NCBI GenBank assembly: GCA_023229245.1
Contig: JALNZU010000004.1
Span: 11,411 to 75,410, forward strand
Direction: 5' to 3'
Length of the DNA: 64,000 nucleotides
Source: Bacteroidales bacterium
GTDB lineage: Bacteria > Bacteroidota > Bacteroidia > Bacteroidales > F082
Below, piece by piece: positions 2,458 to 62,205 of the stretch. How positions within the stretch are numbered: position 1 is the first letter of the stretch; every line of letters starts with the position of its first letter. The position numbers were made by a program, and so were the translations under genes. The notes under the pieces were generated by a model. That model was not told where the DNA came from. It did not search any database and worked only from the letters and a program-made list of their open reading frames with translations.

Positions 2458-4422
2458 ATGAGTTATATAGCTTTTGACAAAACACAGTTGATCAATCTTG
2501 AGTTTTCACTTGCCCGTGAGTTGTTGCGTTCCAACAGATCAGGATCTTATGCAAGTACCACTATTACAGGCTGTAATACCCGTAAATACCATGGCCTTCT
2601 GGTTTCGCCCCAGCCCTGGTTAGATCATAACAAGCATGTGCTGCTTTCGGCTATAGACGAGAGCATCATTCAACATGATGAGGTGTTTAATTTCGGCGTA
2701 CGCATGTATCCTAACGGAGTATATAATCCGAAAGGACATAAATATTTACGTGAGTTTAAAGGCGAACCTATTCCTAAGATTGTCTATAGGGTAGGAGGGG
2801 TGTTGCTGAGCAAAGAGATGATCTTTACCGACAACGAAGCTCGCATATTGATCAAATATACGCTTGAAGATGCCCATTCTAAGACTATACTGCGGCTAAA
2901 GCCTTTTCTTGCATTTCGAAATGTCCATCAACTCACAACGGCCAATATACATGCCAATAACAAATATGAAGCATGTCCGGACGGCGTTTCATGGCAGATG
3001 TATCCCGGCTATTCACGGTTGTATATGCAGTTGAGCAAACAAAGCGAATACACCCATGTACCCGACTGGTATTATAATATCGAATATATACGTGATCGGG
3101 ATATGGGGCTGCCGGCCACCGAAGATTTGTTTGTACCTGGATTTTTTGATGTGGAAATAAAAAAAGGCGAGAGCATTATCGTTTCAGCTTCTACCGAAGA
3201 AGCACGCCCCGAACAGCTCAAAAGTATGTTTCAAAAAGCTTTTAAAAAAAGAACTCCACGCGATAATTTTGAGAACTGCCTGATTAATGCTGCCGAACAA
3301 TTTCTGATCAAACAACAGCAAAAGACAGAGATTATGGCCGGTTTCCCCTGGTTCAACACCTGGAGCAGGGATACGTTTATCGCATTACCGGGTATCACAC
3401 TTAGCCGTAACGATGAAGCCAGTTTTAAAGCTGTGTTGGATACGAAACTGAGTACTATGCAAGGCCCATTGTTTCCAAATATCTCATGCGATAACCGACC
3501 CAATTTTGCTTCAGCCGATGCGCCGCTCTGGTTTTTCTGGACCTTGCAGCAATATACCGGTCGAAATGCTCAGCTAACCCAGGTATGGAAAAAATATAAA
3601 AAACCTATAATTACAATATTAGAAGGATACCGGCAAGGTAGCTCTTATAATATTCGCATGTTAGATAATTATCTGATCACTGCCGGTGAACCAGGTATGG
3701 CGCTGACATGGATGGATGTGTTCCATAATGGAAAACCTGTTACAGCCCGTACAGGTATGGCAGTAGAGATTAATGCCCTGTGGTATAATGCAATACAGTA
3801 TGCCCTTGAGCTGGCCCAAGCTGCCAAAGACTATGAGTTCATTCAAGTCTGGAAGGATTATCCCGAAAACATACAAACATCCTTTATCAATGAGTTTTGG
3901 GATGAACAAAAAGCTTACCTGGCTGACTATATACATGGTGATGATAAAGACTGGACAGTACGTCCGAATATGTTGCTGGCTGCCTCTATGCCTTATTCCA
4001 TGCTCACCGACGAGATGCAACAAAGGGTGTTGAATCGGGTCAAATCGGAGCTGCTTACCGAGCGAGGCCTTAGGTCGCTCACACCTACTCATCCCGATTA
4101 TAAAGGTAATTATAAAGGTAATCAGGAAGAGCGCAATATGGCCTACCATCAGGGAACGGTTTTCCCTTGGCTGCTATCTCATTTTGCAGAAGCCTGGCTA
4201 AGATTATATGGGCAATCGGGTATAGGATTGGTAGAAGAGCTGTATTCCAATTTTGAGCCGGCTCTTTTTGAAGGCGGATTAGCAACCATCTCAGAAGTCT
4301 TTGATGGTGACCCGCCTCACGAATCGCGGGGAGCTATCTCACAAGCATGGAGCGTAGCAGCACTGATCAGGATAAAAGAGCTTATCGGGCAATTCAAAAA
4401 CAATAAAAACAAAGGCACATGA
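2458..4422 (+). CDS. Glycogen debranching enzyme-like protein (GDE_N + amylo-alpha-1,6-glucosidase-type GDE_C, archaeal type)
   Basis: 654-aa ORF. Motifs RKYHGLLV, GFPWFNTWSRDTFIALPG, EINALWYNA, RPNMLLAASMPYSML, LTERGLRSL and YHQGTVFPWL are typical of putative archaeal-type debranching enzymes. Confidence 0.8.
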   Translation: MSYIAFDKTQLINLEFSLARELLRSNRSGSYASTTITGCNTRKYHGLLVSPQPWLDHNKHVLLSAIDESIIQHDEVFNFGVRMYPNGVYNPKGHKYLREFKGEPIPKIVYRVGGVLLSKEMIFTDNEARILIKYTLEDAHSKTILRLKPFLAFRNVHQLTTANIHANNKYEACPDGVSWQMYPGYSRLYMQLSKQSEYTHVPDWYYNIEYIRDRDMGLPATEDLFVPGFFDVEIKKGESIIVSASTEEARPEQLKSMFQKAFKKRTPRDNFENCLINAAEQFLIKQQQKTEIMAGFPWFNTWSRDTFIALPGITLSRNDEASFKAVLDTKLSTMQGPLFPNISCDNRPNFASADAPLWFFWTLQQYTGRNAQLTQVWKKYKKPIITILEGYRQGSSYNIRMLDNYLITAGEPGMALTWMDVFHNGKPVTARTGMAVEINALWYNAIQYALELAQAAKDYEFIQVWKDYPENIQTSFINEFWDEQKAYLADYIHGDDKDWTVRPNMLLAASMPYSMLTDEMQQRVLNRVKSELLTERGLRSLTPTHPDYKGNYKGNQEERNMAYHQGTVFPWLLSHFAEAWLRLYGQSGIGLVEELYSNFEPALFEGGLATISEVFDGDPPHESRGAISQAWSVAALIRIKELIGQFKNNKNKGT

Positions 4423-5702
4423 AAGTAATGATGTTTGGATGGGAGTTTCCTCCCCATATCACCGGGGGCCTTGGAACAGCCTGCTTCGGGCTTACCAAAG
4501 GATTAGCCAAACATGGCGTAGAAGTGCTGTTTGTGGTGCCTAAAGCTTATGGCGATGAAAGTCAGGAAGCCGTCAGACTGCTCAATGCCAGCGATGTAAC
4601 TATTGATATAGACAAAGAGGAAAATCGTACCTATTGGGAACGTGTGCAATATATGGAAATAGGCTCTAATATTATTCCTTATGTAGGTCCTGAACAATTT
4701 GAAAAGTTGAATGAGGAATCCTTTTTACAAAGTGAGTCAGATAGAAGCCCAGTGTTTTCACAGCATTACGAGTTTTCTGGTAAATATGGCAGCAATCTCA
4801 TGGAAGAGGTGGCACGCTATGCATTAGTAGGATCAGCCCTTGCTACTCAACATGATTTTGATGTCATCCATGCCCACGATTGGCTGACCTACCCAGCTGG
4901 TGTTGCAGCCAAAGAATCCACAGGTAAACCATTGATAGTCCATATGCATGCTACCGAGTTCGACCGCTCGGGTGAAAACGTTAATACACAGGTGTATGCA
5001 ATGGAGCGTCATGGGATGGAAATGGCCGACAGAGTGATTACGGTGAGCAACCTGACACGACGAACGGTTATTGAAAAATATGGCATAGACCCTCGCAAAG
5101 TGTTTACAGTACATAATGCCGTAGAACCGGTCGACAAATCAGATATCACTTTACCCGAAAAAGGGGTGACCGAAAAGGTAGTTACATTCTTAGGACGTAT
5201 CACGTATCAGAAAGGCCCTGAATATTTTGTGGAAGCAGCCCGAAAAATACTCAACAAAGACCAGAATATTCGATTTGTGATGGCTGGTACAGGCGATCTG
5301 CTCAATAAAACAGTACAGCGGGTAGCCCAGCTGCGCATCGGACATAGGTTTCACTTTACCGGCTTCCTGAAAGGCGAAGATGTGGATAAAATGTTTGCAA
5401 TGAGTGATGTGTTTGTGATGCCATCCATTTCCGAGCCTTTTGGCATAGTCCCTTTGGAAGCCATGCGGTCTAATGTGCCTGTGGTCATATCCAAACAATC
5501 GGGAGTAGCCGAAGTACTTAAACATGCCCTGAAAGTTGACTTTTGGGATGTGGATGGATTAGCAGATGCCATCTATGGGCTGTGCCATTACGATGCATTG
5601 TCGGATATATTTATTAAACACGGCAAAGAAGAAGTGGACAGCCTTAAATGGGAACATGCAGCAAAACTTGTGAAAAATGTATATGAATCCATCTTTTTGT
5701 AA
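4419..5702 (+). CDS. GT-B retaining glycosyltransferase (GT4/GT5, archaeal-type glycogen synthase-like)
   Basis: Start ATG overlaps the upstream stop (ATGA at 4419-4422). N-terminal FGWEFPPHITGGLG and E-x7-E motif EPFGIVPLEAM. Sits inside the glycogen locus. Confidence 0.75.
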   Translation: MKVMMFGWEFPPHITGGLGTACFGLTKGLAKHGVEVLFVVPKAYGDESQEAVRLLNASDVTIDIDKEENRTYWERVQYMEIGSNIIPYVGPEQFEKLNEESFLQSESDRSPVFSQHYEFSGKYGSNLMEEVARYALVGSALATQHDFDVIHAHDWLTYPAGVAAKESTGKPLIVHMHATEFDRSGENVNTQVYAMERHGMEMADRVITVSNLTRRTVIEKYGIDPRKVFTVHNAVEPVDKSDITLPEKGVTEKVVTFLGRITYQKGPEYFVEAARKILNKDQNIRFVMAGTGDLLNKTVQRVAQLRIGHRFHFTGFLKGEDVDKMFAMSDVFVMPSISEPFGIVPLEAMRSNVPVVISKQSGVAEVLKHALKVDFWDVDGLADAIYGLCHYDALSDIFIKHGKEEVDSLKWEHAAKLVKNVYESIFL

Positions 5703-5737: not shown

Positions 5738-7321
5738 ATGAGATCAATTTGTTTTTATTTTCAGGTTCATCAGCCATTCAGACTTAGGACATACCGGTTT
5801 TTTGATATAGGTAAGAACCAGTATTATTTCGATGAATACTATAATCGAACGATTATGCGTAGGATAGCTGAGAAGAGCTATCTCCCAATGAATGAGCTGC
5901 TTATGGAGCTTATTGAAGAATATGGTGCGCAGTTCAGGATAAGCTTGTCCTTTTCAGGCATTGCCATTGAGCAAATGGAAGTGTATGCACCTGAGGTATT
6001 AGATAGCTTTAAAAAGCTTATCGCAACTGGTCAGGTAGAGGTGTTGGGCGAGACATATGCACACTCACTAAGCGCATTGAAAGATATGACAGAGTTTAAA
6101 AAACAGATAAGCAGTCATATAGAAAAAATACAAAAAACCTTTGGAGTTAGTCCGGTCACTTTTCGCAATACAGAGCTGATCTACTCGGATGAGATAGGCG
6201 CCCAAGTAGCCGATATGGGTTTCTCACTCATGCTTACCGAAGGAGCTAAGCATGTGCTTGGATGGAAAAGCCCAAATTATATGTATGCCAATGCCATCAA
6301 TCCAAAGCTTAAAGTGTTGCTACGTAATTTCCGGTTAAGTGATGATATCTCATTACGCTTCTCACAGCAAAACTGGTCGGAATGGCCTCTGACAACAGAG
6401 AAATTTGTTGGATGGCTGAACGAAATTAATCCTAAAGAAGAGGTGGTTAATATCTTTATGGATTACGAGACCTTTGGTGAATACCAATGGGCAGGCAGCG
6501 GTATTTTTGACTTTATGAAAGTGTTGCCAGCAGCCATATTGAGTAAGACAGACCTGAAGTTCGCCACACCTGGTCAATTGGTTCACACACTACAGCCAGT
6601 GTCGGCTATTCATGTGCCATATCCTATTTCCTGGACTGATGAAGAACGCGATCTGACAGCATGGATGGGTAATAATATGCAAAATGAAGCTTTGGAACGA
6701 CTATACGATCTGACCTCCAAGGTGCAACATATTCATGATGAAGAACTCTTACGCGACTGGAACTATCTGCAAGCATCCGATCATTTTTATTTTATGAGTA
6801 CCAAATGGTTCTCCGATGGAGGATTGCACGCACACTTCAACCATTATCCATCACCTTATGAAGCCTATATCAACTATATGAACGTGTTGGCCGACTTCAG
6901 CATACGGGTCGAAAATCAGTCAGCAGGTTTTCTTGAACGATCAGAAGAGCTGTTGGAAAAAGGTATAAAGTTAGGTAAGGAATTAGGGAAAAGTGCAATA
7001 AAAGGATTGGAGAAAACAAGGAAATCTGTACAGGATACACTGAAAAAAGGAGAAGAAACTGTTCAGCCTATATTCGAGGATCTACTTAATATGTCGAACG
7101 TCAAACTAAAACAATTACTCAGAGAACTTGAAACCGATGATCTTGTCGTAGCACTTAAGGAAGCCGGAGATGAACTAAGAAATAAAGTCATGCCTAATCT
7201 GACTGTAAAAACTAGAAAAGCAGTGGAAGAGGCTAGCTCAAAAATTGAGAAAGTAACCCGCCAACAAGTCAAAAAGGTGCGTAAAACCATAGACAATAAA
7301 ATGCACCAGCTGTTTGGATGA
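5738..7321 (+). CDS. Glycoside hydrolase family 57 enzyme with a ~130-aa C-terminal extension ending in a FliG_C-like domain
   Basis: GH57 conserved-region-like motifs: VHQPFRL, GQVEVLGETYAH, FRNTELIYSD (candidate nucleophile Glu), FMDYETFGE (candidate acid/base Asp), LQASDHFYFM. The tail is Lys/Glu-rich, then FEDLLNMSNVKLKQLLRELETDDLVVALKEAGDELRNKV... Confidence 0.8.
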   Translation: MRSICFYFQVHQPFRLRTYRFFDIGKNQYYFDEYYNRTIMRRIAEKSYLPMNELLMELIEEYGAQFRISLSFSGIAIEQMEVYAPEVLDSFKKLIATGQVEVLGETYAHSLSALKDMTEFKKQISSHIEKIQKTFGVSPVTFRNTELIYSDEIGAQVADMGFSLMLTEGAKHVLGWKSPNYMYANAINPKLKVLLRNFRLSDDISLRFSQQNWSEWPLTTEKFVGWLNEINPKEEVVNIFMDYETFGEYQWAGSGIFDFMKVLPAAILSKTDLKFATPGQLVHTLQPVSAIHVPYPISWTDEERDLTAWMGNNMQNEALERLYDLTSKVQHIHDEELLRDWNYLQASDHFYFMSTKWFSDGGLHAHFNHYPSPYEAYINYMNVLADFSIRVENQSAGFLERSEELLEKGIKLGKELGKSAIKGLEKTRKSVQDTLKKGEETVQPIFEDLLNMSNVKLKQLLRELETDDLVVALKEAGDELRNKVMPNLTVKTRKAVEEASSKIEKVTRQQVKKVRKTIDNKMHQLFG

Positions 7322-7437: not shown

Positions 7438-10400
7438 ATGAGAAAACCATCTTATGTGTTTGAAGTCAGTTGGGAAGTAAGTAATATGGTTGGAGGGATT
7501 TATACCGTACTTTCCAGCAAAGCAAATGTGATGCGTAAAACCTGGGGTGATAATTATATCACCATAGGTCCGGATGTATGGATGGAAACGCGTACCAATC
7601 CCTATTTTACCGAAGATACCACCTTGTTTGAACAATGGAAGCAGAAGCTTGCCAACCAAGGTTTTAAGGTTCGTATTGGTCGATGGAATATTCCTGCCCG
7701 ACCTATTGCAATATTGATTGACTTTACACCACTACTCAGCGAAAAAGATCGCATTTTTGCCGACTTGTGGGAGACCTATAAACTTGATTCTATCCATGGA
7801 CAATGGGACTATATCGAGCCTGCCATGTTTGGATACGCTTCTGGAAAGTTAATAGAGAGCTTCTATAACTTCTTCCTGACCGGCTATGACGATGTGCTGG
7901 CACATTACCATGAATGGATGACTGGAACCGGGATACTTTATCTGAAGCAGCACTGCCCTCAAATAGCTACAGCCTTTACAACGCATGCGACATTTCTTGG
8001 ACGCTCCTTAGCAGGAAATAACCTGCCTTTGTACAAAGATCTTGAAGCTTATAACCCATCGGCTATGGCCAACCGGTTTAATATCACCGCACAACAATCG
8101 CTTGAGAGCCTGTCGGCACAACAGACTGACGCATTTACCACTGTAAGCCAGATCACGGCAAAAGAATGTAAACAGTTCTTAGGACGACAGCCTGATGTGA
8201 TCACAAATAACGGCTTCGATGATGAGTTTAGTGGAACTATTGAACAACAAGCATCAAAACGAAATGCCGCACGTGAAAAAATTCTCTCGGTAGCCTCAAA
8301 ACTTTATGGAAGTACACTAAACGATGATACCATACTCATATTGAACAGCGGTCGCTATGAGTTTAAAAACAAAGGTATCGATTTGTATATAGATGCGTTA
8401 GCACAACTCAACAATGATAAAAACCTAAAAAAGGATATTTTAGCTGTGATAGCTGTACCGGCCAATAGCAGCGGCCCTAACCTGAAGCTACAGCAGTGCC
8501 TTAGCGATGATGAATGTCAGGCAGCTTACCCGGATAATATTGCAAGTCATCATTTGCACGATGCCGATCATGACCCTGTTTTAGTGCGCCTCAAAGAAAA
8601 AGGGCTGATCAATGGAAAAGGTAATCGGATAAAGATGATGTATGTACCCGTATATCTGAATGGGAACGACGGAATCTTTGACCTGAAATATTACGATTTT
8701 CTGGCCGGCTTTGATTTGACGGTTTTCCCTTCTTATTACGAGCCATGGGGCTACACACCTCTTGAAAGTATTGCCTTTGGAATACCTACCATAACAACTG
8801 ATCTGGCAGGCTTCGGATTATGGGTTCAGTCGTTGCAACTGAAAACAAAAGCCGTGCAAGTCATTCCACGACAGGAAGATATACACGAAAAAGCAGTAGA
8901 TGAACTGACAAAGGCGATCAACACTTTTATCCATCTCAATCCGACTGAGTTGCAACAGTGTGTATCCGATGCAAGAAATATTGCCTCAAAAGCTCAATGG
9001 ACAGAATTGATATCCAACTATTTCGAGGCATGGGATATGGCGCTGTCTAAACTTGAACAACGGGAATCTGTCTTTGTAGCTCAAAAGACTGCCGAAACTC
9101 TGCGAACCATTACTCTTAGCAAGCAAGACCAGCCGACCTGGAAAAAAATACTCTTCCAACCGGTTTATACCCAAGAGCTTAATAAACTACACGAGATGGC
9201 ACAAAACCTCTGGTGGTCGTGGAACACTGATGCTATCAGCTTGTTTGAGTCAATAGATGCAGAGGCATGGGAAAAGCACGAACAAAACCCTATCGCATTG
9301 ATGGAAGAGCTTACTTCCGAACAGATGGAAGCCTTAGAAAACGATCAGGAATTTATTGCCCAACTTAATATGGTATATACTAAGTTTCAGGACTATATGA
9401 CGGCTGAAGTTGCTGCCGACGATTTGATAGCTTATTTCAGCATGGAATATGGCCTGCACAAAAGTCTGAAGATATATTCCGGTGGCCTGGGAGTGTTGGC
9501 TGGCGACTATCTGAAAGAAGCCAGCGATTCACGTGTCAACCTGATTGCGATGGGCTTGCTGTATAGATACGGCTACTTCCAACAGGATATTTCTTTGATA
9601 GGTGATCAATTAGCACAATATATCCCTCAAAAATTTACCCATCTGCCGCTTGAACCTGTTCGGGATGCCGATGGTAACTGGGTTATCGTTCGTATTGCTT
9701 TTCCGGGCAGGGTGGTCACTGCCAAAGCCTGGAAAGTGAAAGTCGGCCGTATTTCCCTGTTTTTGTTGGATACGGATATTGAAGAAAATAGCATGGAAGA
9801 CAGGCGTATCACACATCAGCTATACGGTGGAGATAGTGAAATGCGTTTCAAACAGGAGATGATACTTGGAATAGGCGGGATACGGCTGTTGAAAAAGCTG
9901 AATATCAATCCGGTCATCTATCACAGCAACGAAGGCCATTCGGCTTTTATCGGATTAGAACGCTTACGTATGCTGATTGAAAAGAAGCAGCTTAATTTTT
10001 CTCAGGCACAGGAAGTTGTCAGAGCTTCCACATTGTTTACAACGCACACACCTGTCCCCGCAGGGCATGATGCTTTTGAAGAGCATGTGCTGCGAACCTA
10101 TATGCCACATTATGCCGAACGTCTGAATATCAGTTGGGAAGAGTTCATCGGTCTTGGACGCTTCCATCCCAACGATCCCAATGAAAAATTTTCTATGAGT
10201 GTGTTGGCAGCTAATCTCAGTCAGGAGGTCAATGGAGTAAGCCAGATACATGGCCGGGTATCGCGTGAGATGTTTCAGCAGCTTTATCCGGGATATTTTG
10301 CCAATGAGCTGCATATCAGTCATGTAACTAATGGAGTTCATTATTTTACCTGGACTAATCGCTTGTTTCAAGAGCTGTATGAGAATAATTTCCCAAAAAG

Positions 10401-11664
10401 TTTTCTAACCGATCAATCCAATCCGGCTCACTGGGAACAAATCCATCAGATCGATTCGGCTGCTATCTGGTCAATACGCAGGCAGCTTAAAAAAGAGCTG
10501 ATCAGCTATTTGAAGAACAAGATCAGGAATGACCTTACCAAGCGTCAGGAAAGCCCGAAGCTTATCTTAAAAACTATTGATGCCTTGAACGATCATGCGT
10601 TGATAATCGGCTTTGCCCGTAGATTTGCTACCTATAAGCGAGCTCACCTGTTGTTCTCTAATTTAGAGCGTCTGTCCGAATTAGTGAATAAGACCGATCG
10701 CCAACTTATCTTCTTGTTTGCTGGCAAAGCACATCCGAATGATAAGGCTGGGCAAGACCTGATCAAACGAATTATTGAGATAAGCAAAACTCCTCCATTC
10801 ATAGGTAAGATAGTGTTTGTCGAAAACTATGATATGGAACTTGGACATAAGCTTACCAGCAGCTGTGACATATGGCTGAACACGCCAACACGGCCTTTGG
10901 AGGCTTCGGGAACTAGCGGTGAGAAAGCGGTGATGAACGGAGTCTTGAACTTCTCTGTGTTAGACGGATGGTGGGCCGAAGGATACAAACCTAATGCTGG
11001 TTGGGCCATTGAAGAGCAGCGAATGTATCAAAATCAGTCCTTTCAGGATGAACTGGACGCTGAGACCATATACACACTGCTTGAAACAGAAATAATACCT
11101 GCCTTTTTCGATAGAAACTCGGAAGGTATACCGGAAAAGTGGATAGGATTTATTCGAAATAATATCGCCCAGATAGCACCGCACTTCACTATGAAACGGA
11201 TGTTGGACGATTATTTTGAAAAGTTTTATCACAAATTGGCTGCTCGTACCAAAGCGTTAGTGGATAATCATTATGAAAAAGCTATCAGTCTGACGGCCTG
11301 GAAGCAAAAAGTCAGTGCAGCATGGGAACATATTGAAGTAGCTTCTATCAAAGTCCCTGATCCTACTATTCGTCCGTTGAATTTTGGAGAAAACTTTGTA
11401 GCCGAGATTACCTTGAAAACTCCTGGCTTGCTGCCGGGCGATATATGTATTGAACTGATGTTTGGCAGGAAATTATTCGACAAAATTGATGAGATCGTTT
11501 TTGTTGAACGCATGAGTATTATAGGTTCTGGCGAAGACTGGGTGCAATATCATGTGAATGTAGCTGTCAATCGGGCAGGAGTATATGATTATACATTCCG
11601 TATCAGTCCACAGCATGCCGAGCTACCTCATCGTCAGGATTTTCCTTTGGTAAAATGGATCTGA
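7438..11664 (+). CDS. Fusion protein: GT3 glycogen synthase (N-terminal ~540 aa) + GT35 alpha-glucan phosphorylase (C-terminal ~830 aa)
   Basis: Single uninterrupted 1408-aa frame. GT3 motifs: FEVSWEVSNMVGGIYTV and FPSYYEPWGYTPLES (E-x7-E). GT35/DUF3417-type motifs: NLWWSWN, YFSMEYGLH..YSGGLGVLAGD, GKAHPNDKAGQ, EASGTSGEKAVMNG (PLP-lysine position retained). Confidence 0.85.
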   Translation: MRKPSYVFEVSWEVSNMVGGIYTVLSSKANVMRKTWGDNYITIGPDVWMETRTNPYFTEDTTLFEQWKQKLANQGFKVRIGRWNIPARPIAILIDFTPLLSEKDRIFADLWETYKLDSIHGQWDYIEPAMFGYASGKLIESFYNFFLTGYDDVLAHYHEWMTGTGILYLKQHCPQIATAFTTHATFLGRSLAGNNLPLYKDLEAYNPSAMANRFNITAQQSLESLSAQQTDAFTTVSQITAKECKQFLGRQPDVITNNGFDDEFSGTIEQQASKRNAAREKILSVASKLYGSTLNDDTILILNSGRYEFKNKGIDLYIDALAQLNNDKNLKKDILAVIAVPANSSGPNLKLQQCLSDDECQAAYPDNIASHHLHDADHDPVLVRLKEKGLINGKGNRIKMMYVPVYLNGNDGIFDLKYYDFLAGFDLTVFPSYYEPWGYTPLESIAFGIPTITTDLAGFGLWVQSLQLKTKAVQVIPRQEDIHEKAVDELTKAINTFIHLNPTELQQCVSDARNIASKAQWTELISNYFEAWDMALSKLEQRESVFVAQKTAETLRTITLSKQDQPTWKKILFQPVYTQELNKLHEMAQNLWWSWNTDAISLFESIDAEAWEKHEQNPIALMEELTSEQMEALENDQEFIAQLNMVYTKFQDYMTAEVAADDLIAYFSMEYGLHKSLKIYSGGLGVLAGDYLKEASDSRVNLIAMGLLYRYGYFQQDISLIGDQLAQYIPQKFTHLPLEPVRDADGNWVIVRIAFPGRVVTAKAWKVKVGRISLFLLDTDIEENSMEDRRITHQLYGGDSEMRFKQEMILGIGGIRLLKKLNINPVIYHSNEGHSAFIGLERLRMLIEKKQLNFSQAQEVVRASTLFTTHTPVPAGHDAFEEHVLRTYMPHYAERLNISWEEFIGLGRFHPNDPNEKFSMSVLAANLSQEVNGVSQIHGRVSREMFQQLYPGYFANELHISHVTNGVHYFTWTNRLFQELYENNFPKSFLTDQSNPAHWEQIHQIDSAAIWSIRRQLKKELISYLKNKIRNDLTKRQESPKLILKTIDALNDHALIIGFARRFATYKRAHLLFSNLERLSELVNKTDRQLIFLFAGKAHPNDKAGQDLIKRIIEISKTPPFIGKIVFVENYDMELGHKLTSSCDIWLNTPTRPLEASGTSGEKAVMNGVLNFSVLDGWWAEGYKPNAGWAIEEQRMYQNQSFQDELDAETIYTLLETEIIPAFFDRNSEGIPEKWIGFIRNNIAQIAPHFTMKRMLDDYFEKFYHKLAARTKALVDNHYEKAISLTAWKQKVSAAWEHIEVASIKVPDPTIRPLNFGENFVAEITLKTPGLLPGDICIELMFGRKLFDKIDEIVFVERMSIIGSGEDWVQYHVNVAVNRAGVYDYTFRISPQHAELPHRQDFPLVKWI

Positions 11665-11687
11665 GGGTAGGTGGCAAGTCCTTTTAA

Positions 11688-11724
11688 ACAATCAGGCGGA
11701 TACAAAAAGTATCCGCCTGATTGT
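11688..11724. terminator. Bidirectional rho-independent terminator between convergent genes
   Basis: Perfect 16-bp stem (acaatcaggcggatac / gtatccgcctgattgt) with an aaaaa loop. Lies between the stop at 11664 (+) and the stop at 11734 (-). Confidence 0.75.
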
Positions 11725-11733
11725 TATTGGCTT

Positions 11734-13197
11734 TTATTTTTCCGGGATATTTTTCAATATATCTAAGGTAAGGTCCCAGAATTTTTGTACCGTACTTATT
11801 TCGATGCGCTCATCTGGTGAGTGGGCACCTTTTATAGTAGGACCATAGGAGATCATATCCATCCCCGGGTATTTGTCTCCTATAAGACCACATTCAAGTC
11901 CGGCGTGTATGGCTTTTACTACAGGTTGTGTAGTAAACAGTTTATTGTAGGATGCTACGGTGATTTCGCGTATAACTGAATCAGGGTTTGGTTCCCAGCC
12001 CGGATATCCATTGCTGTGTTCGACTTGTGCTCCGGCTAACTCAAAGCAAGCACGTACCATATTAGCTACGTCTTCTTTAGCCGATTCAACCGAGCTACGC
12101 TGACTGGTAGTAATCAGAAAATGATCTGGCTCCATGCGTACTGCTGCTAAATTAGTTGAGGTCTCTACAAAATCAGGTATGCGTTGCGACCAGGCAATCA
12201 CCCCATGTGGACAAGCGTATAAGCTGGAAAATAAACGCCCTTGAGCTGATCGGGAAACGATTTTGTCGATGGATTGCTCATGAACAGCATGGTGTATATG
12301 CAGATTGGGTTCGATAACAGCAAATTCATTGCGTATGTCATGAGCCAACTGCCGGACGAAAGCTTCAAAATCATTTTGATGCTGGAGTGGTACTAAAACA
12401 ACAGCCTTAGCTTCTCTTGCGATGGCATTGCGCAAATTGCCCCCTTCCAGAAAAGCAAGCCGTATCTCAAAACTGTGATGAGCACCCCATAAAATTCTGG
12501 TGATAATTTTGTTGGCATTGCCTAATCCTTTGTGGATATCATCACCCGAATGACCGCCTTTTAAGCCTGATACAGTGATTTCAAATGCCTGATGATCAGT
12601 CGGAGGATACTCGAGAGTGTATGGCAGTTGGATCACCGTATCTTTTCCACCAGCACATCCAATAAATAGCTCGCCTTCATCTTCTGAATCTAAATTAAGT
12701 AAAATACGACCTTTCATAAACTCACTATCCAAACCGAAAGCACCTGTCAACCCCGTTTCTTCATCTACAGTAAAAAGCGCTTCGATGGGCCCATGAGCTA
12801 TGTCATCCGCAGCCAAAATTGCAAGTTGTGCCGCCACACCTATACCGTCATCAGCGCCTAAGGTAGTGCCATTGGCTTTAACCCAGCCGCCCTCAATGAG
12901 TACTTCAATAGGATCGCGATCGAAATCATGAACCTTGTCGCTGTTTTTCTCACATACCATATCTACATGGCTCTGTAGGACAACCGTTTTACGGTTTTCC
13001 ATGCCCGGTGTGGCAGGCTTTCGGATCAACACATTCCCTACCGTATCCTGCTCGTGATCCAACGAATGCTTCTGTGCAAAATCAAGCAGGTATTTAATGA
13101 TTTGTTCTTCTTTTTTAGAAGGTCTGGGTATCAAAGTGATATCACGGAAATAAGTCCAAACCTCTTTAGGAGCTAATTCAAGCAAAATAGTATTCAT
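11734..13197 (-). CDS. pepD: Aminoacyl-histidine (Xaa-His) dipeptidase, M20C family
   Basis: 487 aa. PepD-like N-terminus (LAPKEVWTYFRDITLIPRPSKKE), metal-site motifs HVDMV, DDGIGVA and DEETGLTGA, and C-terminal GPTIKGAHSPDERI. Confidence 0.85.
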   Translation of the reverse strand: MNTILLELAPKEVWTYFRDITLIPRPSKKEEQIIKYLLDFAQKHSLDHEQDTVGNVLIRKPATPGMENRKTVVLQSHVDMVCEKNSDKVHDFDRDPIEVLIEGGWVKANGTTLGADDGIGVAAQLAILAADDIAHGPIEALFTVDEETGLTGAFGLDSEFMKGRILLNLDSEDEGELFIGCAGGKDTVIQLPYTLEYPPTDHQAFEITVSGLKGGHSGDDIHKGLGNANKIITRILWGAHHSFEIRLAFLEGGNLRNAIAREAKAVVLVPLQHQNDFEAFVRQLAHDIRNEFAVIEPNLHIHHAVHEQSIDKIVSRSAQGRLFSSLYACPHGVIAWSQRIPDFVETSTNLAAVRMEPDHFLITTSQRSSVESAKEDVANMVRACFELAGAQVEHSNGYPGWEPNPDSVIREITVASYNKLFTTQPVVKAIHAGLECGLIGDKYPGMDMISYGPTIKGAHSPDERIEISTVQKFWDLTLDILKNIPEK

Positions 13198-13390
13198 AAG
13201 AGTTGTATTAAATAAGCTACAAATGTAATGAATGCGAATGAAAGACCAAACCTCTTACAATGGATTCTCAACAAGGATTTTCACAATAGCCCCTACTATA
13301 TGAGAGATGACAGGCTCAACGGTATCGATGACTTGGTCTTACCGTACCAGTTTGTAGTCAAAGCTAAATGGAAATGATGCAGCTATACGC

Positions 13391-14050
13391 TTAGCTGGTA
13401 TGGCAGTTTTTAAGTTGATGTATGATCTCCTGAGGATTATCAGCACTAAAAATGGCATTTCCGGCAACTAAAATATCAGCTCCGTGTCGTACTAATTTAG
13501 CTGCATTTTCAACATCTACACCTCCATCCACTTCTATAAGTGCTTGTGATCCCCGACCTATCAGCATCTCTTTTAACTCGCTTATCTTGCGGTAGCTATG
13601 CTCGATGAATTGTTGCCCGCCAAAGCCTGGGTTGACCGACATCAGCAAAATATAATCTACCTCTTCGACTATATATTCCAACAGCGAGAGAGCAGTATGC
13701 GGGTTAAGTACTATACCTGCCTTCATGCCAAGGCTACGAATCTGTTGCAGGCTTCTATGGGCATGTATGGATGCTTCTATATGTATGGAGAGCATATCGG
13801 CACCAGCATCGTGAAACGCAGCTATATAGCGTTCGGGTTCTACTATCATCAGATGCACGTCAAGTGGTTTTTGTGCCAGCTTTTTGATAGCTCTTATAAC
13901 TGGTAACCCAAAGGAGATATTAGGTACAAATCTGCCGTCCATCACATCGCAATGGATCCAGTCGGCCTCACTTTGGTTGATCATATGAATAGCTTTTCCT
14001 AATTCTAAGAAATCAGCCGAAAGTAAAGAAGGTGCGATGAGTGGTTTCAT
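13391..14050 (-). CDS. rpe: Ribulose-phosphate 3-epimerase
   Basis: 219 aa. IAPSLLSADF, HCDVMDGRFVPNISFG, HLMI and MSVNPGFGGQQF are canonical Rpe motifs. Confidence 0.92.
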   Translation of the reverse strand: MKPLIAPSLLSADFLELGKAIHMINQSEADWIHCDVMDGRFVPNISFGLPVIRAIKKLAQKPLDVHLMIVEPERYIAAFHDAGADMLSIHIEASIHAHRSLQQIRSLGMKAGIVLNPHTALSLLEYIVEEVDYILLMSVNPGFGGQQFIEHSYRKISELKEMLIGRGSQALIEVDGGVDVENAAKLVRHGADILVAGNAIFSADNPQEIIHQLKNCHTS

Positions 14051-14110
14051 TAGTTTTGATGTTGTTCATGCAAAAGTATGCGTTTTCAGCCGGTTTTGTA
14101 TCTGTAAATA

Positions 14111-14139
14111 AAAAAACCTTACTAACTGCAAGGTTTTTT
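14111..14139 (-). terminator. Candidate rho-independent terminator downstream of rpoD
   Basis: aaaaaacctt / aaggtttttt stem with a 9-nt loop, 9 nt beyond the rpoD stop. AT-rich, with a T-run on the minus strand. Confidence 0.45.
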
Positions 14140-14147
14140 TAAGCTGT

Positions 14148-15008
14148 TTACAGATATGTCTTCAGGATTTTACTTCTGCTGGTATGTTTCAGGCGGCGTA
14201 TAGCTTTTTCTTTGATCTGCCTTACCCGTTCACGGGTGAGATCGAATTGTTCGCCTATTTCTTCTAGTGTCATCGGATGGCCGCCATTCAATCCAAAATA
14301 CAGTCTGATCACATTTGCTTCACGTTGGGTGAGGGTTGAGATGGCACGGTCTATCTCTTTTCTTAGTGATTCGTACAGCAGTTCGGTTTCCGGTGTGATG
14401 GCTTCTTCGCTTTTGAGCACATCGTACATAGTGTTGTCCTCGTCCTGAATAAGGGGTGCATCCATTGAGATATGTCTTCCCGCATTCTTCATAGACTCTT
14501 TGACTTCATTCTCGGTGATTTCGAGCAGACCAGCAATTTCTGTTGCATTGGGTTCGCGCTCGTATTCTTGTTCCAACTTAGCATAGGCTTTGTTGATCTT
14601 GTTGATCGACCCAATTTTGTTGAGTGGTAAACGCACTATGCGCGACTGCTCGGCCAGGGCTTGCAGGATAGACTGACGTATCCACCATACGGCATAAGAG
14701 ATGAACTTAAAGCCACGTGTCTCATCAAATCGTTGAGCTGCTTTTATCAAGCCTAAATTCCCTTCATTAATCAGGTCGGGTAGGCTAAGCCCTTGATTTT
14801 GATATTGTTTGGAAACAGAAACCACAAAACGTAAGTTGGCTTTGGTTAGTTTTTCCAAAGCTGATTTATCGCCTTGTTTTATACGTTGAGCCAGCTCTAC
14901 CTCTTCTTCTGCTGTGATCAGTTCAACCTTCCCTATCTCCTGAAGGTATTTATCCAGCGAAGCATTTTCACGATTTGTAACTTGTTTGGTGATCTTAAGT
15001 TGCCTCAT
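14148..15008 (-). CDS. rpoD: RNA polymerase primary sigma factor (Bacteroidetes-type short sigma-70)
   Basis: 286 aa. Regions 2-4 recognisable ([59 protein letters not shown]). The short N-terminus is typical of Bacteroidetes SigA. Confidence 0.9.
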
Positions 15009-56055: not shown

Positions 56056-57924
56056 ATGAGGTATTTATATTTTTTAAAACATTTTTCTAAATGGTTTTTA
56101 CTCTTAGCACTTCTGCTGCCTTTTGTTGCGTTTCCGCAGAGTATCACAACAGTTGAACCGCCTTTTTGGTGGGCTGGTATGAATCATACCGAATTGCAGC
56201 TTATGGTTTATGGTAAAGAATTAGCACAGACAAAACCACAGATACAGCATCCGGGAATCACCCTGAAAGAAACTACCTATTCTAACAATCCAAACTATTT
56301 GTTCCTGACGATTGAGATCACTCCTGAAACGGGTCCTACGATATTTCAAATCCGATTTGAGACCGGCAAAAGAAAAGCACCTATAATCAACTATGAGTTA
56401 AAGGAAAGGGAGGAAGGATCGTCTCAGCGGCAAGGATTCACTGCCAGTGATGTGATCTATCTGCTAATGCCCGATCGGTTTGCCAACGGAGACCCTGATA
56501 ATGATCATACGAAAGGAATGCTTGAGACGGCCGATAAAACCAAACCCGATGGACGTCATGGAGGCGATCTCAATGGAATCATAGACCATTTAGACTATTT
56601 CAATGAGCTGGGTGTTACAACTTTATGGATCAATCCAGTGTTAGAAAATAGTATGCCCGACTATTCCTATCATGGCTATGCGATAACCGATTTTTATAAA
56701 GTTGATCCCCGTCTGGGGAGTAATGAAGAATACCGTTTGTTGATACAATTGGCACATAAAAGAGGATTGCGCATAGTAAAAGATATGGTATTCAATCATT
56801 TTGGCACGAATCATTGGTGGATGAATGATCTGCCTATGAGCGACTGGATACATCAATGGCCCGAATTCACCCGCTCAAACTACAGAAGTGGTACCTTGAC
56901 AGACCCGTATGCCTCTCAATGGGATAAAGACCTTATGTTGAAAGGTTGGTTCGACCATAGCATGGCCGACTTGAATCAGGATAACCCATTTGTAGCTGAA
57001 TACCTGATCCAAAACAGCATCTGGTGGATTGAATATGCCGGATTGGATGGCATCCGCATGGATACCTATCCGTATTCGGGGAAGAGGTTTATGGCCGAAT
57101 GGATGCAACGGATACGTAATGAATATCCTGATTTTTCGGTGGTGGGTGAGGTATGGTTGAATACCACTCCACAAGTGGCCTATTGGATGAATGATGCTCA
57201 TAATTCAGATAGCTTTAATTCGTATCTGGACTATGTATTTGATTTTCCTTTGAAATATGCGTTAGCAGAAGCATTCAACGAAGAGAACGGCTGGAGTAGC
57301 GGCATTGCACGACTATATGAATCACTAAGTTTAGATTTTCTATATCCTTATCCGCAACAGCTGGTGGTTTTTGCTGATAACCACGATACCGATCGTATCT
57401 TCAGTGTCTTGAAGCACGATATCCGAAAGTTTAAAATGGCAATGGCCTTTTTGATGACAGTGCGTGGGATTCCTCAGATATACTATGGTACCGAGATTCT
57501 GATGACAGGGTGGGAACATCAGGGACATGGATTTATACGGGAAGACTTTCCCGGTGGATGGATGCACGACAGTGTGAATGCGTTTACACAAACAGGACTA
57601 ACAGCTGATCAGTACGATGCCTGGACTTATATGCGGCTACTGCTGCAATGGCGAAAAAATAAAAAAGTGATCCACGAAGGGAAAACGACACATTATATAC
57701 CTGAAGAAGGTGTTTATGTGTATTTCAGACATCTTGACGGTGAATCCATCATGGTAGTGTTAAATAATAACAATGAAAGCAAGACGTTTAAAACCGAGCG
57801 ATATACCGAGAATCTTAAAGGATATAGTACCGGAACAGATGTATTGCATAGAACCTATTTCGACCAACTGAGAATCATTTCGGTTCCGGCTATGTCGGCA
57901 CGTATTATCGAACTTAAAAGATAA
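56056..57924 (+). CDS. GH13 alpha-amylase-family enzyme (cyclomaltodextrinase/neopullulanase-like) with signal peptide
   Basis: 622 aa. Cyclomaltodextrinase-type N-domain (VEPPFWWAGM). GH13 regions DMVFNHFG, GLDGIRMDTYPY (nucleophile Asp), VGEVW (acid/base Glu) and FADNHDTDR. Confidence 0.85.
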   Translation: MRYLYFLKHFSKWFLLLALLLPFVAFPQSITTVEPPFWWAGMNHTELQLMVYGKELAQTKPQIQHPGITLKETTYSNNPNYLFLTIEITPETGPTIFQIRFETGKRKAPIINYELKEREEGSSQRQGFTASDVIYLLMPDRFANGDPDNDHTKGMLETADKTKPDGRHGGDLNGIIDHLDYFNELGVTTLWINPVLENSMPDYSYHGYAITDFYKVDPRLGSNEEYRLLIQLAHKRGLRIVKDMVFNHFGTNHWWMNDLPMSDWIHQWPEFTRSNYRSGTLTDPYASQWDKDLMLKGWFDHSMADLNQDNPFVAEYLIQNSIWWIEYAGLDGIRMDTYPYSGKRFMAEWMQRIRNEYPDFSVVGEVWLNTTPQVAYWMNDAHNSDSFNSYLDYVFDFPLKYALAEAFNEENGWSSGIARLYESLSLDFLYPYPQQLVVFADNHDTDRIFSVLKHDIRKFKMAMAFLMTVRGIPQIYYGTEILMTGWEHQGHGFIREDFPGGWMHDSVNAFTQTGLTADQYDAWTYMRLLLQWRKNKKVIHEGKTTHYIPEEGVYVYFRHLDGESIMVVLNNNNESKTFKTERYTENLKGYSTGTDVLHRTYFDQLRIISVPAMSARIIELKR

Positions 57925-60816: not shown

Positions 60817-62205
60817 ATGAAAAAAACTGTTCTTCAATTACTAAGTGTCTCAGCAATATGGATGATCATGCTGGGACTTTTTTCGTGTGCAGGCAATGCC
60901 AAGCAGGAGCAACAGACTAATCTGAAACCTTATTCAGAGGTTGTTACTCCGGTATGGGCTAAAAATGCTGTTATTTATGAAGTGAATATACGTCAATATA
61001 CTCCCGAAGGCAGCTTTGATGCATTTGCAAGGCATCTGCCACGACTGAAAGAACTTGGAGTAGATATCCTATGGTTGATGCCTATACATCCGATCGGGCA
61101 GCTAAACCGCAAAGGTAGCCTTGGAAGCTATTATTCGGTAAAAGATTATAAAGCGATCAACCCGGAATTTGGGAGCATAGATGATTTTAAAAGTTTAGTC
61201 AATCAGGCGCATGAGTCAGGTTTTAAAGTGATCATTGATTGGGTGGCCAATCATACTGCATTCGATCACGAGTGGACACAACAGCATCCCGAGTGGTATT
61301 ATAAAGACGAACATGGTAAGTTGGTCTCGCCTTACGATTGGACTGATGTGGCTCATCTCGACTACGAGCAGCATCCCGATTTATGGGACGCCATGATAGA
61401 TGCCATGAAATACTGGGTCATTGAGACTAATATAGATGGGTATCGTTGTGATGTGGCCGGTATGGTGCCTACTGCTTTTTGGGAGCGTGCCCGCCTGGAA
61501 TTGGATGCCTTAAAGCCTGTCTTTATGCTGGCCGAAGATGAAGCACAGCGCAATCTGACGCAAAAGGCTTTCGATGCTAATTATGGATGGGAGTTCCATC
61601 ATCTGATGAATCGTATGGCAAAAGGTGAGAAAAATCCGAGCGATGTATGGGATTATTTTGCCCGGCAGGATACCCTCTTTGCACCTTCCACATATAGAAT
61701 GATGTTTACTTCTAATCACGATGAAAATTCATGGAATGGAACAGTGTTTGAACGATTAGATCAGGGTGCACCGGCTTTTGCAGTGATGAGCTATACAGTG
61801 CCGGGATTTCCCCTTATTTATAACGGTCAGGAAGTAGCTCTGAACCATAGGCTACAGTTTTTTGAGAAAGATGAAATCAACTGGGATACAGCAACGATAT
61901 ACACTGACTTTTATACTCAGCTCAATCAAATAAAAAAATCTAACGAAAGCCTGTGGAATGCTGATTCAGGTGGTGCTATGATAGCCGTTGAGACCGATAA
62001 GCCAGAAGCAGTACTCTCCTTTATCAGGCAAAAAAATGATAACGAAGTACTTGTGTTTATCAATTGTACAGCTATCGAACAAGATGTTCAGGTGAAAGAT
62101 GAACATCTTTATAAAAGTTATATCGATTTGTTCACCAATGATACAACTCACCTGCAGGCAGCGCCCTTTAAGATGGGAGCATGGAGCTTTAAGTTATTGA
62201 GATAG
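60817..62205 (+). CDS. GH13 alpha-amylase, lipoprotein
   Basis: 462 aa. Lipobox LFSCAG. GH13 regions DWVANHTAFDH, IDGYRCDVAGM, FMLAEDE and FTSNHDENS. Confidence 0.85.
   Translation: MKKTVLQLLSVSAIWMIMLGLFSCAGNAKQEQQTNLKPYSEVVTPVWAKNAVIYEVNIRQYTPEGSFDAFARHLPRLKELGVDILWLMPIHPIGQLNRKGSLGSYYSVKDYKAINPEFGSIDDFKSLVNQAHESGFKVIIDWVANHTAFDHEWTQQHPEWYYKDEHGKLVSPYDWTDVAHLDYEQHPDLWDAMIDAMKYWVIETNIDGYRCDVAGMVPTAFWERARLELDALKPVFMLAEDEAQRNLTQKAFDANYGWEFHHLMNRMAKGEKNPSDVWDYFARQDTLFAPSTYRMMFTSNHDENSWNGTVFERLDQGAPAFAVMSYTVPGFPLIYNGQEVALNHRLQFFEKDEINWDTATIYTDFYTQLNQIKKSNESLWNADSGGAMIAVETDKPEAVLSFIRQKNDNEVLVFINCTAIEQDVQVKDEHLYKSYIDLFTNDTTHLQAAPFKMGAWSFKLLR

Follow-up and report, generated by a model that had tools for sequence, protein, structure and literature searches.

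Within a 64,000-nucleotide (nt) stretch of contig JALNZU010000004.1 from a Bacteroidales bacterium (assembly GCA_023229245.1), referred to here as the window, a single gene joins a glycogen synthase (GS) of glycosyltransferase family 3 (GT3) to an alpha-glucan phosphorylase (GP) of family GT35. The open reading frame (ORF) list and the translation gave one ATG-to-stop frame of 1408 codons with zero internal stops. Pfam models Glycogen_syn (PF05693), DUF3417 (PF11897) and Phosphorylase (PF00343, amino acids (aa) 826-1177) were matched in the encoded protein. The fused gene is single-copy in a 3.5-Mb, 78-contig, 96%-complete genome, and its closest relatives are found in Lentimicrobiaceae metagenome-assembled genomes (MAGs) at 76% identity. 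A preliminary description of this DNA had proposed a single 1408-aa GT3-GT35 polypeptide that keeps both the E-x7-E motif of the synthase (YYEPWGYTPLE) and the pyridoxal phosphate (PLP)-lysine motif of the phosphorylase. The unbroken frame and the Pfam and NCBIfam domains bear out the first of these points, and both motifs were located (Table 1).

Table 1. Features of the fused gene and its neighbors. Positions are those of the window; residue numbers are those of the fused protein.
Feature	Position (nt)	Strand	Basis
Whole fused ORF, GT3 glycogen synthase - linker - GT35 phosphorylase	7438..11664	+	1408 aa + stop
Glycogen synthase half, aa 1-540, GT3 / PF05693, GT-B fold	7438..9057	+	PF05693 match
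HEW motif, aa 158-160; E159 is the N-domain acidic residue of GT3 synthases	7909..7917	+	Aligned to AHFHEW of human, worm and yeast GS
GRYEFKNKG, aa 305-313; R306 and K312 (nucleotide-sugar phosphate binding)	8350..8376	+	Aligned to eukaryotic GRYEF/YxNKG
E-x7-E motif EPWGYTPLE, E435...E443	8740..8766	+	Alignment to eukaryotic GS
Junction/linker, aa 541-563	9058..9126	+	Limits of GS and GP structure alignments
Alpha-glucan phosphorylase half, aa 564-1408, "clade 2" GT35	9127..11661	+	Colinear with full-length Segatella copri GP
DUF3417 N-terminal helical domain, aa 579-677	9172..9468	+	PF11897, E 7e-31
ARRFATYKRAH, aa 1060-1070	10615..10647	+	Alignment to S. copri GP
H1137, at the position of S. 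copri GP R583	10846..10848	+	Counted from the S. copri GP alignment
EASGTSGEKAVMNG, aa 1155-1168, PLP lysine K1163 (= S. copri GP K609)	10900..10941	+	Alignment to S. copri GP
C-terminal beta-sheet domain, about aa 1300-1408, typical of clade 2 phosphorylases	11335..11661	+	AlphaFold2 model and S. copri GP alignment
GH133-type debranching enzyme	2458-4422	+	Domain match; stop overlaps next start
GT4 glycosyltransferase	4419-5702	+	Domain match
GH57 protein	5738-7321	+	Domain match
Hairpin, perfect 17-bp stem, between the fused gene and a convergent M20 peptidase gene	11687..11725		Sequence

The synthase half matched PF05693 with 335.3 bits against a cut-off of 27, over two stretches comprising aa 9-342 and the C-domain, and aligned to human GYS1, Caenorhabditis elegans GS and yeast Gsy2 with E values from 5e-83 (GYS1) to 1e-72. 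Five residues, E159, R306, K312, E435 and E443, match the corresponding residues of all three eukaryotic enzymes; the catalytic residues among the five are those of the Gsy2 and GYS1 structures. Conservation was counted over 63 aligned fused sequences, consisting of the window protein and 62 full-length homologues translated from public contigs. E435 is invariant (63/63), R306 is kept in 62, K312 in 61 and E443 in 60, and position 159 is glutamate in 58 and aspartate in 4. The longer motif YYEPWGYTPLE occupies aa 433-443 (nt 8734-8766).

The phosphorylase half gave a full-length match to TIGR02094, "alpha-glucan family phosphorylase" (aa 664-1266, model positions 1-600, 833.9 bits against a cut-off of 191.7). 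The Thermococcales maltodextrin phosphorylase equivalog NF041129 scored 751 bits, below its cut-off of 1500, indicating a related protein and not an equivalog. The implication of the preliminary description that such a phosphorylase had gone unstudied did not hold, as a stand-alone enzyme with 48% identity, the GP of Segatella copri (ScGP), is known from enzyme assays and structures (Shobu et al., PNAS 2026, PMC12912991; PDB 9L6I, 9MA8, 9U3A, 9UTG and 20YR). Residues 9-851 of ScGP in 9L6I aligned to the phosphorylase half with an E value of 1e-276, up to the last residue of 9L6I, and Foldseek gave a TM score of 0.82 (normalised to target). H870 corresponds by alignment to ScGP H316, and R1061, R1062, Y1066 and K1067 correspond to ScGP R507, R508, Y512 and K513, which form the phosphate/substrate site and the proximal site for adenosine monophosphate (AMP) (PMC12912991). 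These four residues are invariant or near-invariant in the fused sequences, and the lysine at position 1163 is present in 62/63. The ScGP equivalents of H870, R1061, R1062, K1067 and K1163 contact PLP, phosphate and the glucan (PMC12912991). Two further domains of ScGP also have counterparts here: the alpha-helical domain that takes part in pentamer assembly, and the extra C-terminal beta-sheet domain (PMC12912991), for which an AlphaFold2 (AF2) model placed strands at model residues 1092-1183, that is, protein aa 1300-1391.

A difference from ScGP was found at the distal AMP site, where R583 is replaced by H1137; with the R583A substitution, ScGP no longer forms decamers and its glycogenolysis is no longer inhibited by AMP (PMC12912991). 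This column holds 51 lysines, 23 arginines, 3 histidines and other residues among fused sequences, and 45 arginines and 11 lysines among stand-alone ones. A clean contrast between fused and split proteins at this position was considered and rejected, as the column merely shifts from mostly arginine in stand-alone sequences to mostly lysine in fused ones.

A fused protein of this kind could carry one catalytically silent half, serving as a mere glycogen-binding or regulatory appendage, and the preliminary description had named a degenerate half as a finding that would undo its proposal. The synthase is indeed the less conserved of the two halves (61% compared to 72% when both are taken from the same loci, for example), and rare degenerate homologues exist. 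Two fused homologues, L057 and L071, have lost the second glutamate of E-x7-E. A third, L045 (positions 10001-14209, Bacteroidales bacterium Bact_19), is altered at key positions in each half (E159K, R306H, E443K, G682H, H870S, K1067D and K1163T) and sits on a very long branch (3.6); it may be a catalytically dead paralogue. In the window protein, however, all catalytic residues checked are canonical in both halves, and the same positions are invariant or nearly so in the 62 fused homologues and likewise near-invariant in 26 more distant fused representatives. Residue-by-residue alignment thus rules out a degenerate half in the window protein and leaves this state to rare outliers such as L045; as an account of the fusion in general, a silent half is very improbable.

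Between the two halves, about 23 residues (aa 541-563) align to neither GS nor GP structure, the last synthase helix spanning aa 521-540 in the AF2 model and ScGP residue 9 aligning with aa 564. No in-frame ATG, GTG or TTG codon lies between aa 535 and 575; the nearest is M534, within the last synthase helix. The conserved anchors AWDMAL and PTW flank this region and are 30 residues apart in the window protein, and the linker length of about 30 residues that had been proposed was therefore about right. Among 89 fused proteins, 70 keep this spacing within 29-31 residues; parts of the linker sequence are also conserved among the nearest relatives of the window protein.

A junction of this kind might also arise from a lost stop codon or a frameshift during sequencing or assembly, given that the genome is a draft and that some relatives are a single stop codon away from the fused state. 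However, 62 loci from independent assemblies share this colinear, unbroken frame, among them loci of isolates and closed genomes such as Carboxylicivirga caseinilyticus, a Marinilabiliaceae chromosome and Sulfidibacter corallicola. An unbroken frame also crosses the junction in about 100 of 151 genomes that sample the order of the window at roughly one genome per family, and linker length and part of its sequence are conserved with the nearest relatives. Because the frame recurs in independent assemblies, isolates and closed chromosomes, the junction can be accepted as genuine without resequencing. An assembly artefact or chimera is effectively refuted, with a probability close to nil. As far as sequence can tell, the fused gene is confirmed as encoding a genuine single polypeptide with intact catalytic residues in both halves.

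The fusion is widespread. A word-indexed search returned at least 8000 near-full-length matches to the fused protein, and the best 120 of these were all 1401-1428 aa long with an identical domain set. Some of these 120 are named in IMG "glycogen phosphorylase/synthase" or "phosphorylase/glycogen(starch) synthase", and homologues carrying the former name are 59-72% identical to the window protein. The NCBI label for fused homologues is "alpha-glucan family phosphorylase" alone; the preliminary description had rightly suspected that similar fusions sit in databases under generic names. This label hides the synthase half, so that a pathway reconstruction based on it may miss the glycogen synthase of these genomes. 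KEGG entry K16153 is defined as "glycogen phosphorylase/synthase". Proteins under K16153 and the equivalent IMG name share architecture, length and domain order with the window protein, and there is no difference in kind between them. In the literature found, K16153 appears in KEGG Orthology lists only; it has served as a marker of alpha-glucan synthesis (PMC11093988). The searchable text of a 2024 Chemical Reviews article discusses Bacteroidetes GT3 synthases and does not mention a GT3-GT35 fusion (PMC11046441), and the ScGP paper never uses the word "synthase" (PMC12912991).

In a scan of one genome per species, which yielded 80 loci, the fused state was found in Lentimicrobiaceae, Marinilabiliaceae, the isolate C. 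caseinilyticus, Odoribacter, Draconibacterium and Paludibacter propionicigenes. The remainder of the 151-genome sample of the order comprised 9 genomes with a colinear match interrupted by 1-3 in-frame stops, about 20 with two adjacent genes and 15 with no match at E <= 1e-60. Further afield, a library clustered at 50% identity and searched with aa 209-1408 yielded 26 or more representatives, each about 1400 aa long, with matches over the entire length at identities as low as 33%. Named distant members come from Planctomycetota MAGs and from S. corallicola, an isolate of Acidobacteriota, and the same three Pfam domains were matched in all of them. As it is found in most sampled genomes of the order, in other phyla and down to 33% identity, the fusion is old, diverse and widespread, and most Bacteroidales have the fused state. 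Given this majority status and the existing KEGG and IMG name, the fusion is not unusual, and the window protein belongs to a catalogued family as one ordinary member among many.

Separate GS and GP genes were found in Caecibacteroides pullorum, a Bacteroides sp., Mediterranea, a Prevotellaceae MAG and several Paludibacter spp. In these pairs, a synthase of 547-559 aa is followed after a gap of 25-170 nt by a phosphorylase of 852-854 aa that starts MKIKVSN..., always in the order GS then GP. The two proteins are homologous (44-52% identical), with the same order and orientation. Unlike the window, the split loci showed no GH133-GT4-GH57 genes in the 4-10 kb of upstream sequence examined. Several genomes approach the fused state closely. 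In loci L081, L082, L084, L085 and L086 (genomes G299, G031, G376, G401 and G388), the halves share a frame, and a single TAA with a few further codons lies between the synthase and the phosphorylase ATG; L088 (G301) has two TAA codons between same-frame halves, and in L083 (G312) a TAA replaces the second glutamate codon of E-x7-E. Because one in-frame TAA separates the halves in some genomes, a single base change can interconvert the fused and split states.

In order to follow the history of the two states, the phosphorylase core was analysed with IQ-TREE (53 rows, 694 columns), using stand-alone TIGR02094 enzymes as the outgroup. All fused and split sequences formed one clade (Shimodaira-Hasegawa-like approximate likelihood ratio test (SH-aLRT) 97), and the split group formed one clade (100) that is sister to fused Marinilabiliaceae (97). 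Constraining the fused rows to be monophyletic cost 212 log-likelihood units (approximately unbiased (AU) test, p = 4e-6). The tree needs two state changes, giving one fused clade with one split clade nested within it, for rows that were picked after inspecting a 187-row FastTree and a root that depends on the choice of outgroup. Seven stand-alone representatives lacking genomic context, which fell among fused ones in the 187-row FastTree, were omitted (P0131, P0137, P0160, P0173, P0179, P0199 and P0219). Several independent fusion origins were considered on the basis of the 187-row FastTree, which implies at least 10 state changes, some perhaps reflecting fragmentary gene calls; they were rejected in favor of the curated tree with its two. 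With these caveats, the sequences are most simply explained if the halves fused once, long ago, and came apart again later in the lineage that gave rise to Bacteroidaceae, Prevotellaceae and some Paludibacter. Locus L077, a split pair from Prevotellaceae, is a member of the nested split clade. The tree rows did not include ScGP; if it is a member too, the only enzyme of that clade to have been characterised has a fused protein in its ancestry. New here are the conserved linker length, the single-stop intermediates and the apparent origin of the split pair by fission.

The fused gene is the last of four genes that probably form one operon, after the genes for a debranching enzyme of glycoside hydrolase family GH133, a GT4 glycosyltransferase and a GH57 protein. 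The order of glycogen debranching enzyme, GT4, GH57 and fusion was seen in about 45 of 80 related loci, P. propionicigenes and Carboxylicivirga included. Downstream of the fused gene, the hairpin listed in Table 1 is likely, from its sequence, to be a bidirectional terminator that closes the operon. The most conserved gene of the operon is that for the GT4 protein, with 78-86% identity in the nearer relatives (loci L001-L021) compared to 53-72% for the synthase half there. Its best NCBIfam match is TIGR02149, "glgA_Coryne", a family of the GlgM type, but the score of 130 bits does not reach the cut-off of 302. Candidate roles for the GT4 protein are primer maker, second synthase or maltose-1-phosphate synthase. 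The C-terminal tail of the GH57 protein matches FliG_C (PF01706, E 9e-13) and MgtE_N.

Elsewhere in the genome, no second phosphorylase was found, and the fused gene is both the only GT35 match and the only GT3 synthase. No GT5 GlgA was found in the genome except for an N-terminal fragment, a 270-aa ORF at C57:34241-34918 (-) that matches only positions 2-218, the N-terminal half, of ADP-glucose-type GlgA. Retention of a GlgA-GT5 fragment is described for Bacteroidetes in the searchable text of the Chemical Reviews article (PMC11046441). The genome also has a GH77 gene and a GH13 gene that resembles those of branching enzymes. Near the far end of the window, GH13-family ORFs at 56593-57066 and 60955-61467 (+), in frames of 627 and 467 aa, gave weak matches to branching-enzyme models, which suggests more alpha-glucan genes there. 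The sugar nucleotidyltransferase matches in the genome were RmlA, ManC-like, MurU-like and a 304-aa nucleotidyltransferase; the last, on C41:~3245-4160 (-), showed a weak PF00483 match alone (28.6 bits). Because no glgC, galU or UDPGP gene was recognised, this 304-aa protein is a candidate source of sugar nucleotide for the synthase. The donor of the N-terminal module is likely to be UDP-glucose, by analogy with its family. UDP-glucose is used by extracts of Prevotella.

This genome content bears on another reading of the fusion, in which the phosphorylase would run mainly in the synthetic direction, making short maltodextrin primers from glucose-1-phosphate for the GT3 synthase and replacing the missing glycogenin. 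According to the searchable text of the Chemical Reviews article, eukaryotic GT3 synthases need a glycogenin primer (PMC11046441), and neither an ADP- nor a UDP-glucose pyrophosphorylase was recognised in the genome, both of which would fit such a role. However, ScGP has a far lower kcat than other GPs when running in reverse (PMC12912991), and phosphorylases need primers too. As this phosphorylase is the only one in the genome, its diversion to synthesis would leave glycogen mobilisation without the usual enzyme, and the GT4 protein of the operon offers an alternative primer maker. A primer-making phosphorylase is therefore unlikely.

We consider it reasonably probable that the window protein is a bifunctional "glycogen phosphorylase/synthase" made of independently folding, tethered modules, in which the fusion serves co-expression and co-localisation. 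The N-terminal GT3 module would extend alpha-1,4 chains at their non-reducing ends from a nucleotide-glucose, and the C-terminal clade 2 GT35 module, with PLP on K1163, would shorten the same chains by phosphorolysis to release glucose-1-phosphate. The gene would have originated by read-through of a neighboring synthase-phosphorylase gene pair, and a disordered tether, constant in length, would connect the modules. In the AF2 run (aa 209-1408, 36-sequence alignment; mean predicted local distance difference test (pLDDT) score 78.5, predicted TM score (pTM) 0.58), aa 541-581 form a coil in which pLDDT falls below 50 at aa 543-559 and 570-578; because of this low-confidence coil and the pTM, no fixed interdomain pose is predicted. 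The main benefit of such a tether would be equimolar (1:1) co-expression, with both activities brought to the same glycogen particle, around which the phosphorylase pentamer may wrap as that of ScGP does. Net direction would most likely be set by substrate supply and by small effectors acting on each module, such as AMP on the phosphorylase; eukaryote-style phosphorylation or glucose-6-phosphate control is not expected to set it, because that apparatus is missing. The preliminary description had raised the possibility of a non-canonical pathway. Ordinary adjacent gene pairs and a difference of a single stop codon between fused and split states argue against a radically non-canonical one, as easy interconversion of the two states argues that the fusion creates no new pathway.

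Several observations weigh against this reading of loosely tethered modules. No purification or enzyme assay of any fused member was found in the literature, in line with the earlier statement that no biochemical characterisation was known, and nothing in the genome passed the threshold as glgC, galU or a member of the UDPGP family. AMP control of the window protein may differ from that of ScGP because the distal AMP-site arginine is a histidine. In addition, the conserved linker length hints at a coupling tighter than that of a mere tether, and the persistence of the fusion to 33% identity and in three phyla hints at a tighter structural coupling.

The last two points lead to a tightly coupled machine, in which a ring of phosphorylase helical domains, as in a pentamer, would hold the synthases at a fixed distance and reciprocal allosteric switching would avoid a futile cycle. 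The same logic extends to the split proteins of Bacteroides and Segatella, which would then form a non-covalent complex. Besides the linker, which is partly conserved in sequence within the window's clade, and the retention of the fusion over deep divergence, this idea draws on the invariable GS-then-GP order of split genomes at gaps of up to about 170 nt, and on ScGP itself, whose pentamer is inhibited by AMP, wraps glycogen and changes its oligomeric state with AMP (PMC12912991). On the other side, the linker is predicted to be disordered with a modest pTM, and fission appears to have happened and the split form to have persisted; ScGP on its own is both active and regulated in vitro (PMC12912991). 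We therefore hold a tightly coupled machine to be possible but rather improbable. Its strictest form, an obligate synthase-phosphorylase assembly on glycogen with reciprocal switching, in which the split proteins of Bacteroides and Segatella still associate, is slightly more doubtful again. If it were true, the structure and AMP regulation published for stand-alone ScGP would cover just one half of the machine in its native form.

Whether tethered or tightly coupled, this enzyme pair carries the glycogen turnover of Bacteroidales, which include abundant gut and digester organisms. In most Bacteroidales families the opposing activities reside on one chain, and the biochemical and structural studies found used separate proteins. 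The biochemistry of a fused member would bear on how a futile cycle is avoided without eukaryotic phospho-control, on the sugar donor of bacterial GT3 synthases, and on whether a synthase, tethered or bound, is the normal partner of the pentameric, AMP-inhibited phosphorylase.

Compared to known systems, the synthase half shares PF05693, the GT-B fold, and the HEW, GRYEFKNKG and E-x7-E motifs with eukaryotic GT3 synthases (GYS1, 8CVX and 7Q0B; C. elegans GS, 4QLB; Gsy2, 3NAZ). However, the arginine cluster through which glucose-6-phosphate and phosphorylation control the eukaryotic enzymes is missing: the window protein reads NPTELQQCVSDARNIASKAQW at the position of the GYS1 RQR..QRNRTER stretch, and the aligned region has a single arginine. 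The phosphorylated N- and C-terminal tails are missing as well, with nothing before aa 1 and only the phosphorylase beyond aa 540. The window synthase is also about 48 residues shorter than GYS1 at an alignment break (human 378-440 against query 350-364), an excess in GYS1 that may be the eukaryotic tetramerisation insert. The phosphorylase half has the DUF3417 helical domain, GT-B core, C-terminal beta-sheet domain and PLP lysine in common with ScGP, which differs in being a stand-alone 852-aa protein, whereas its window counterpart is fused behind a synthase. Finally, two alpha-glucan steps are likewise placed on one polypeptide in TreS-Mak, Neisseria GlgB-MalQ and Waddlia GlgA-GlgB, as described in the searchable text of the Chemical Reviews article (PMC11046441). 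Those fusions combine consecutive steps in the same direction or contain one inactivated half, whereas the window fusion would combine opposing reactions at the same chain ends.

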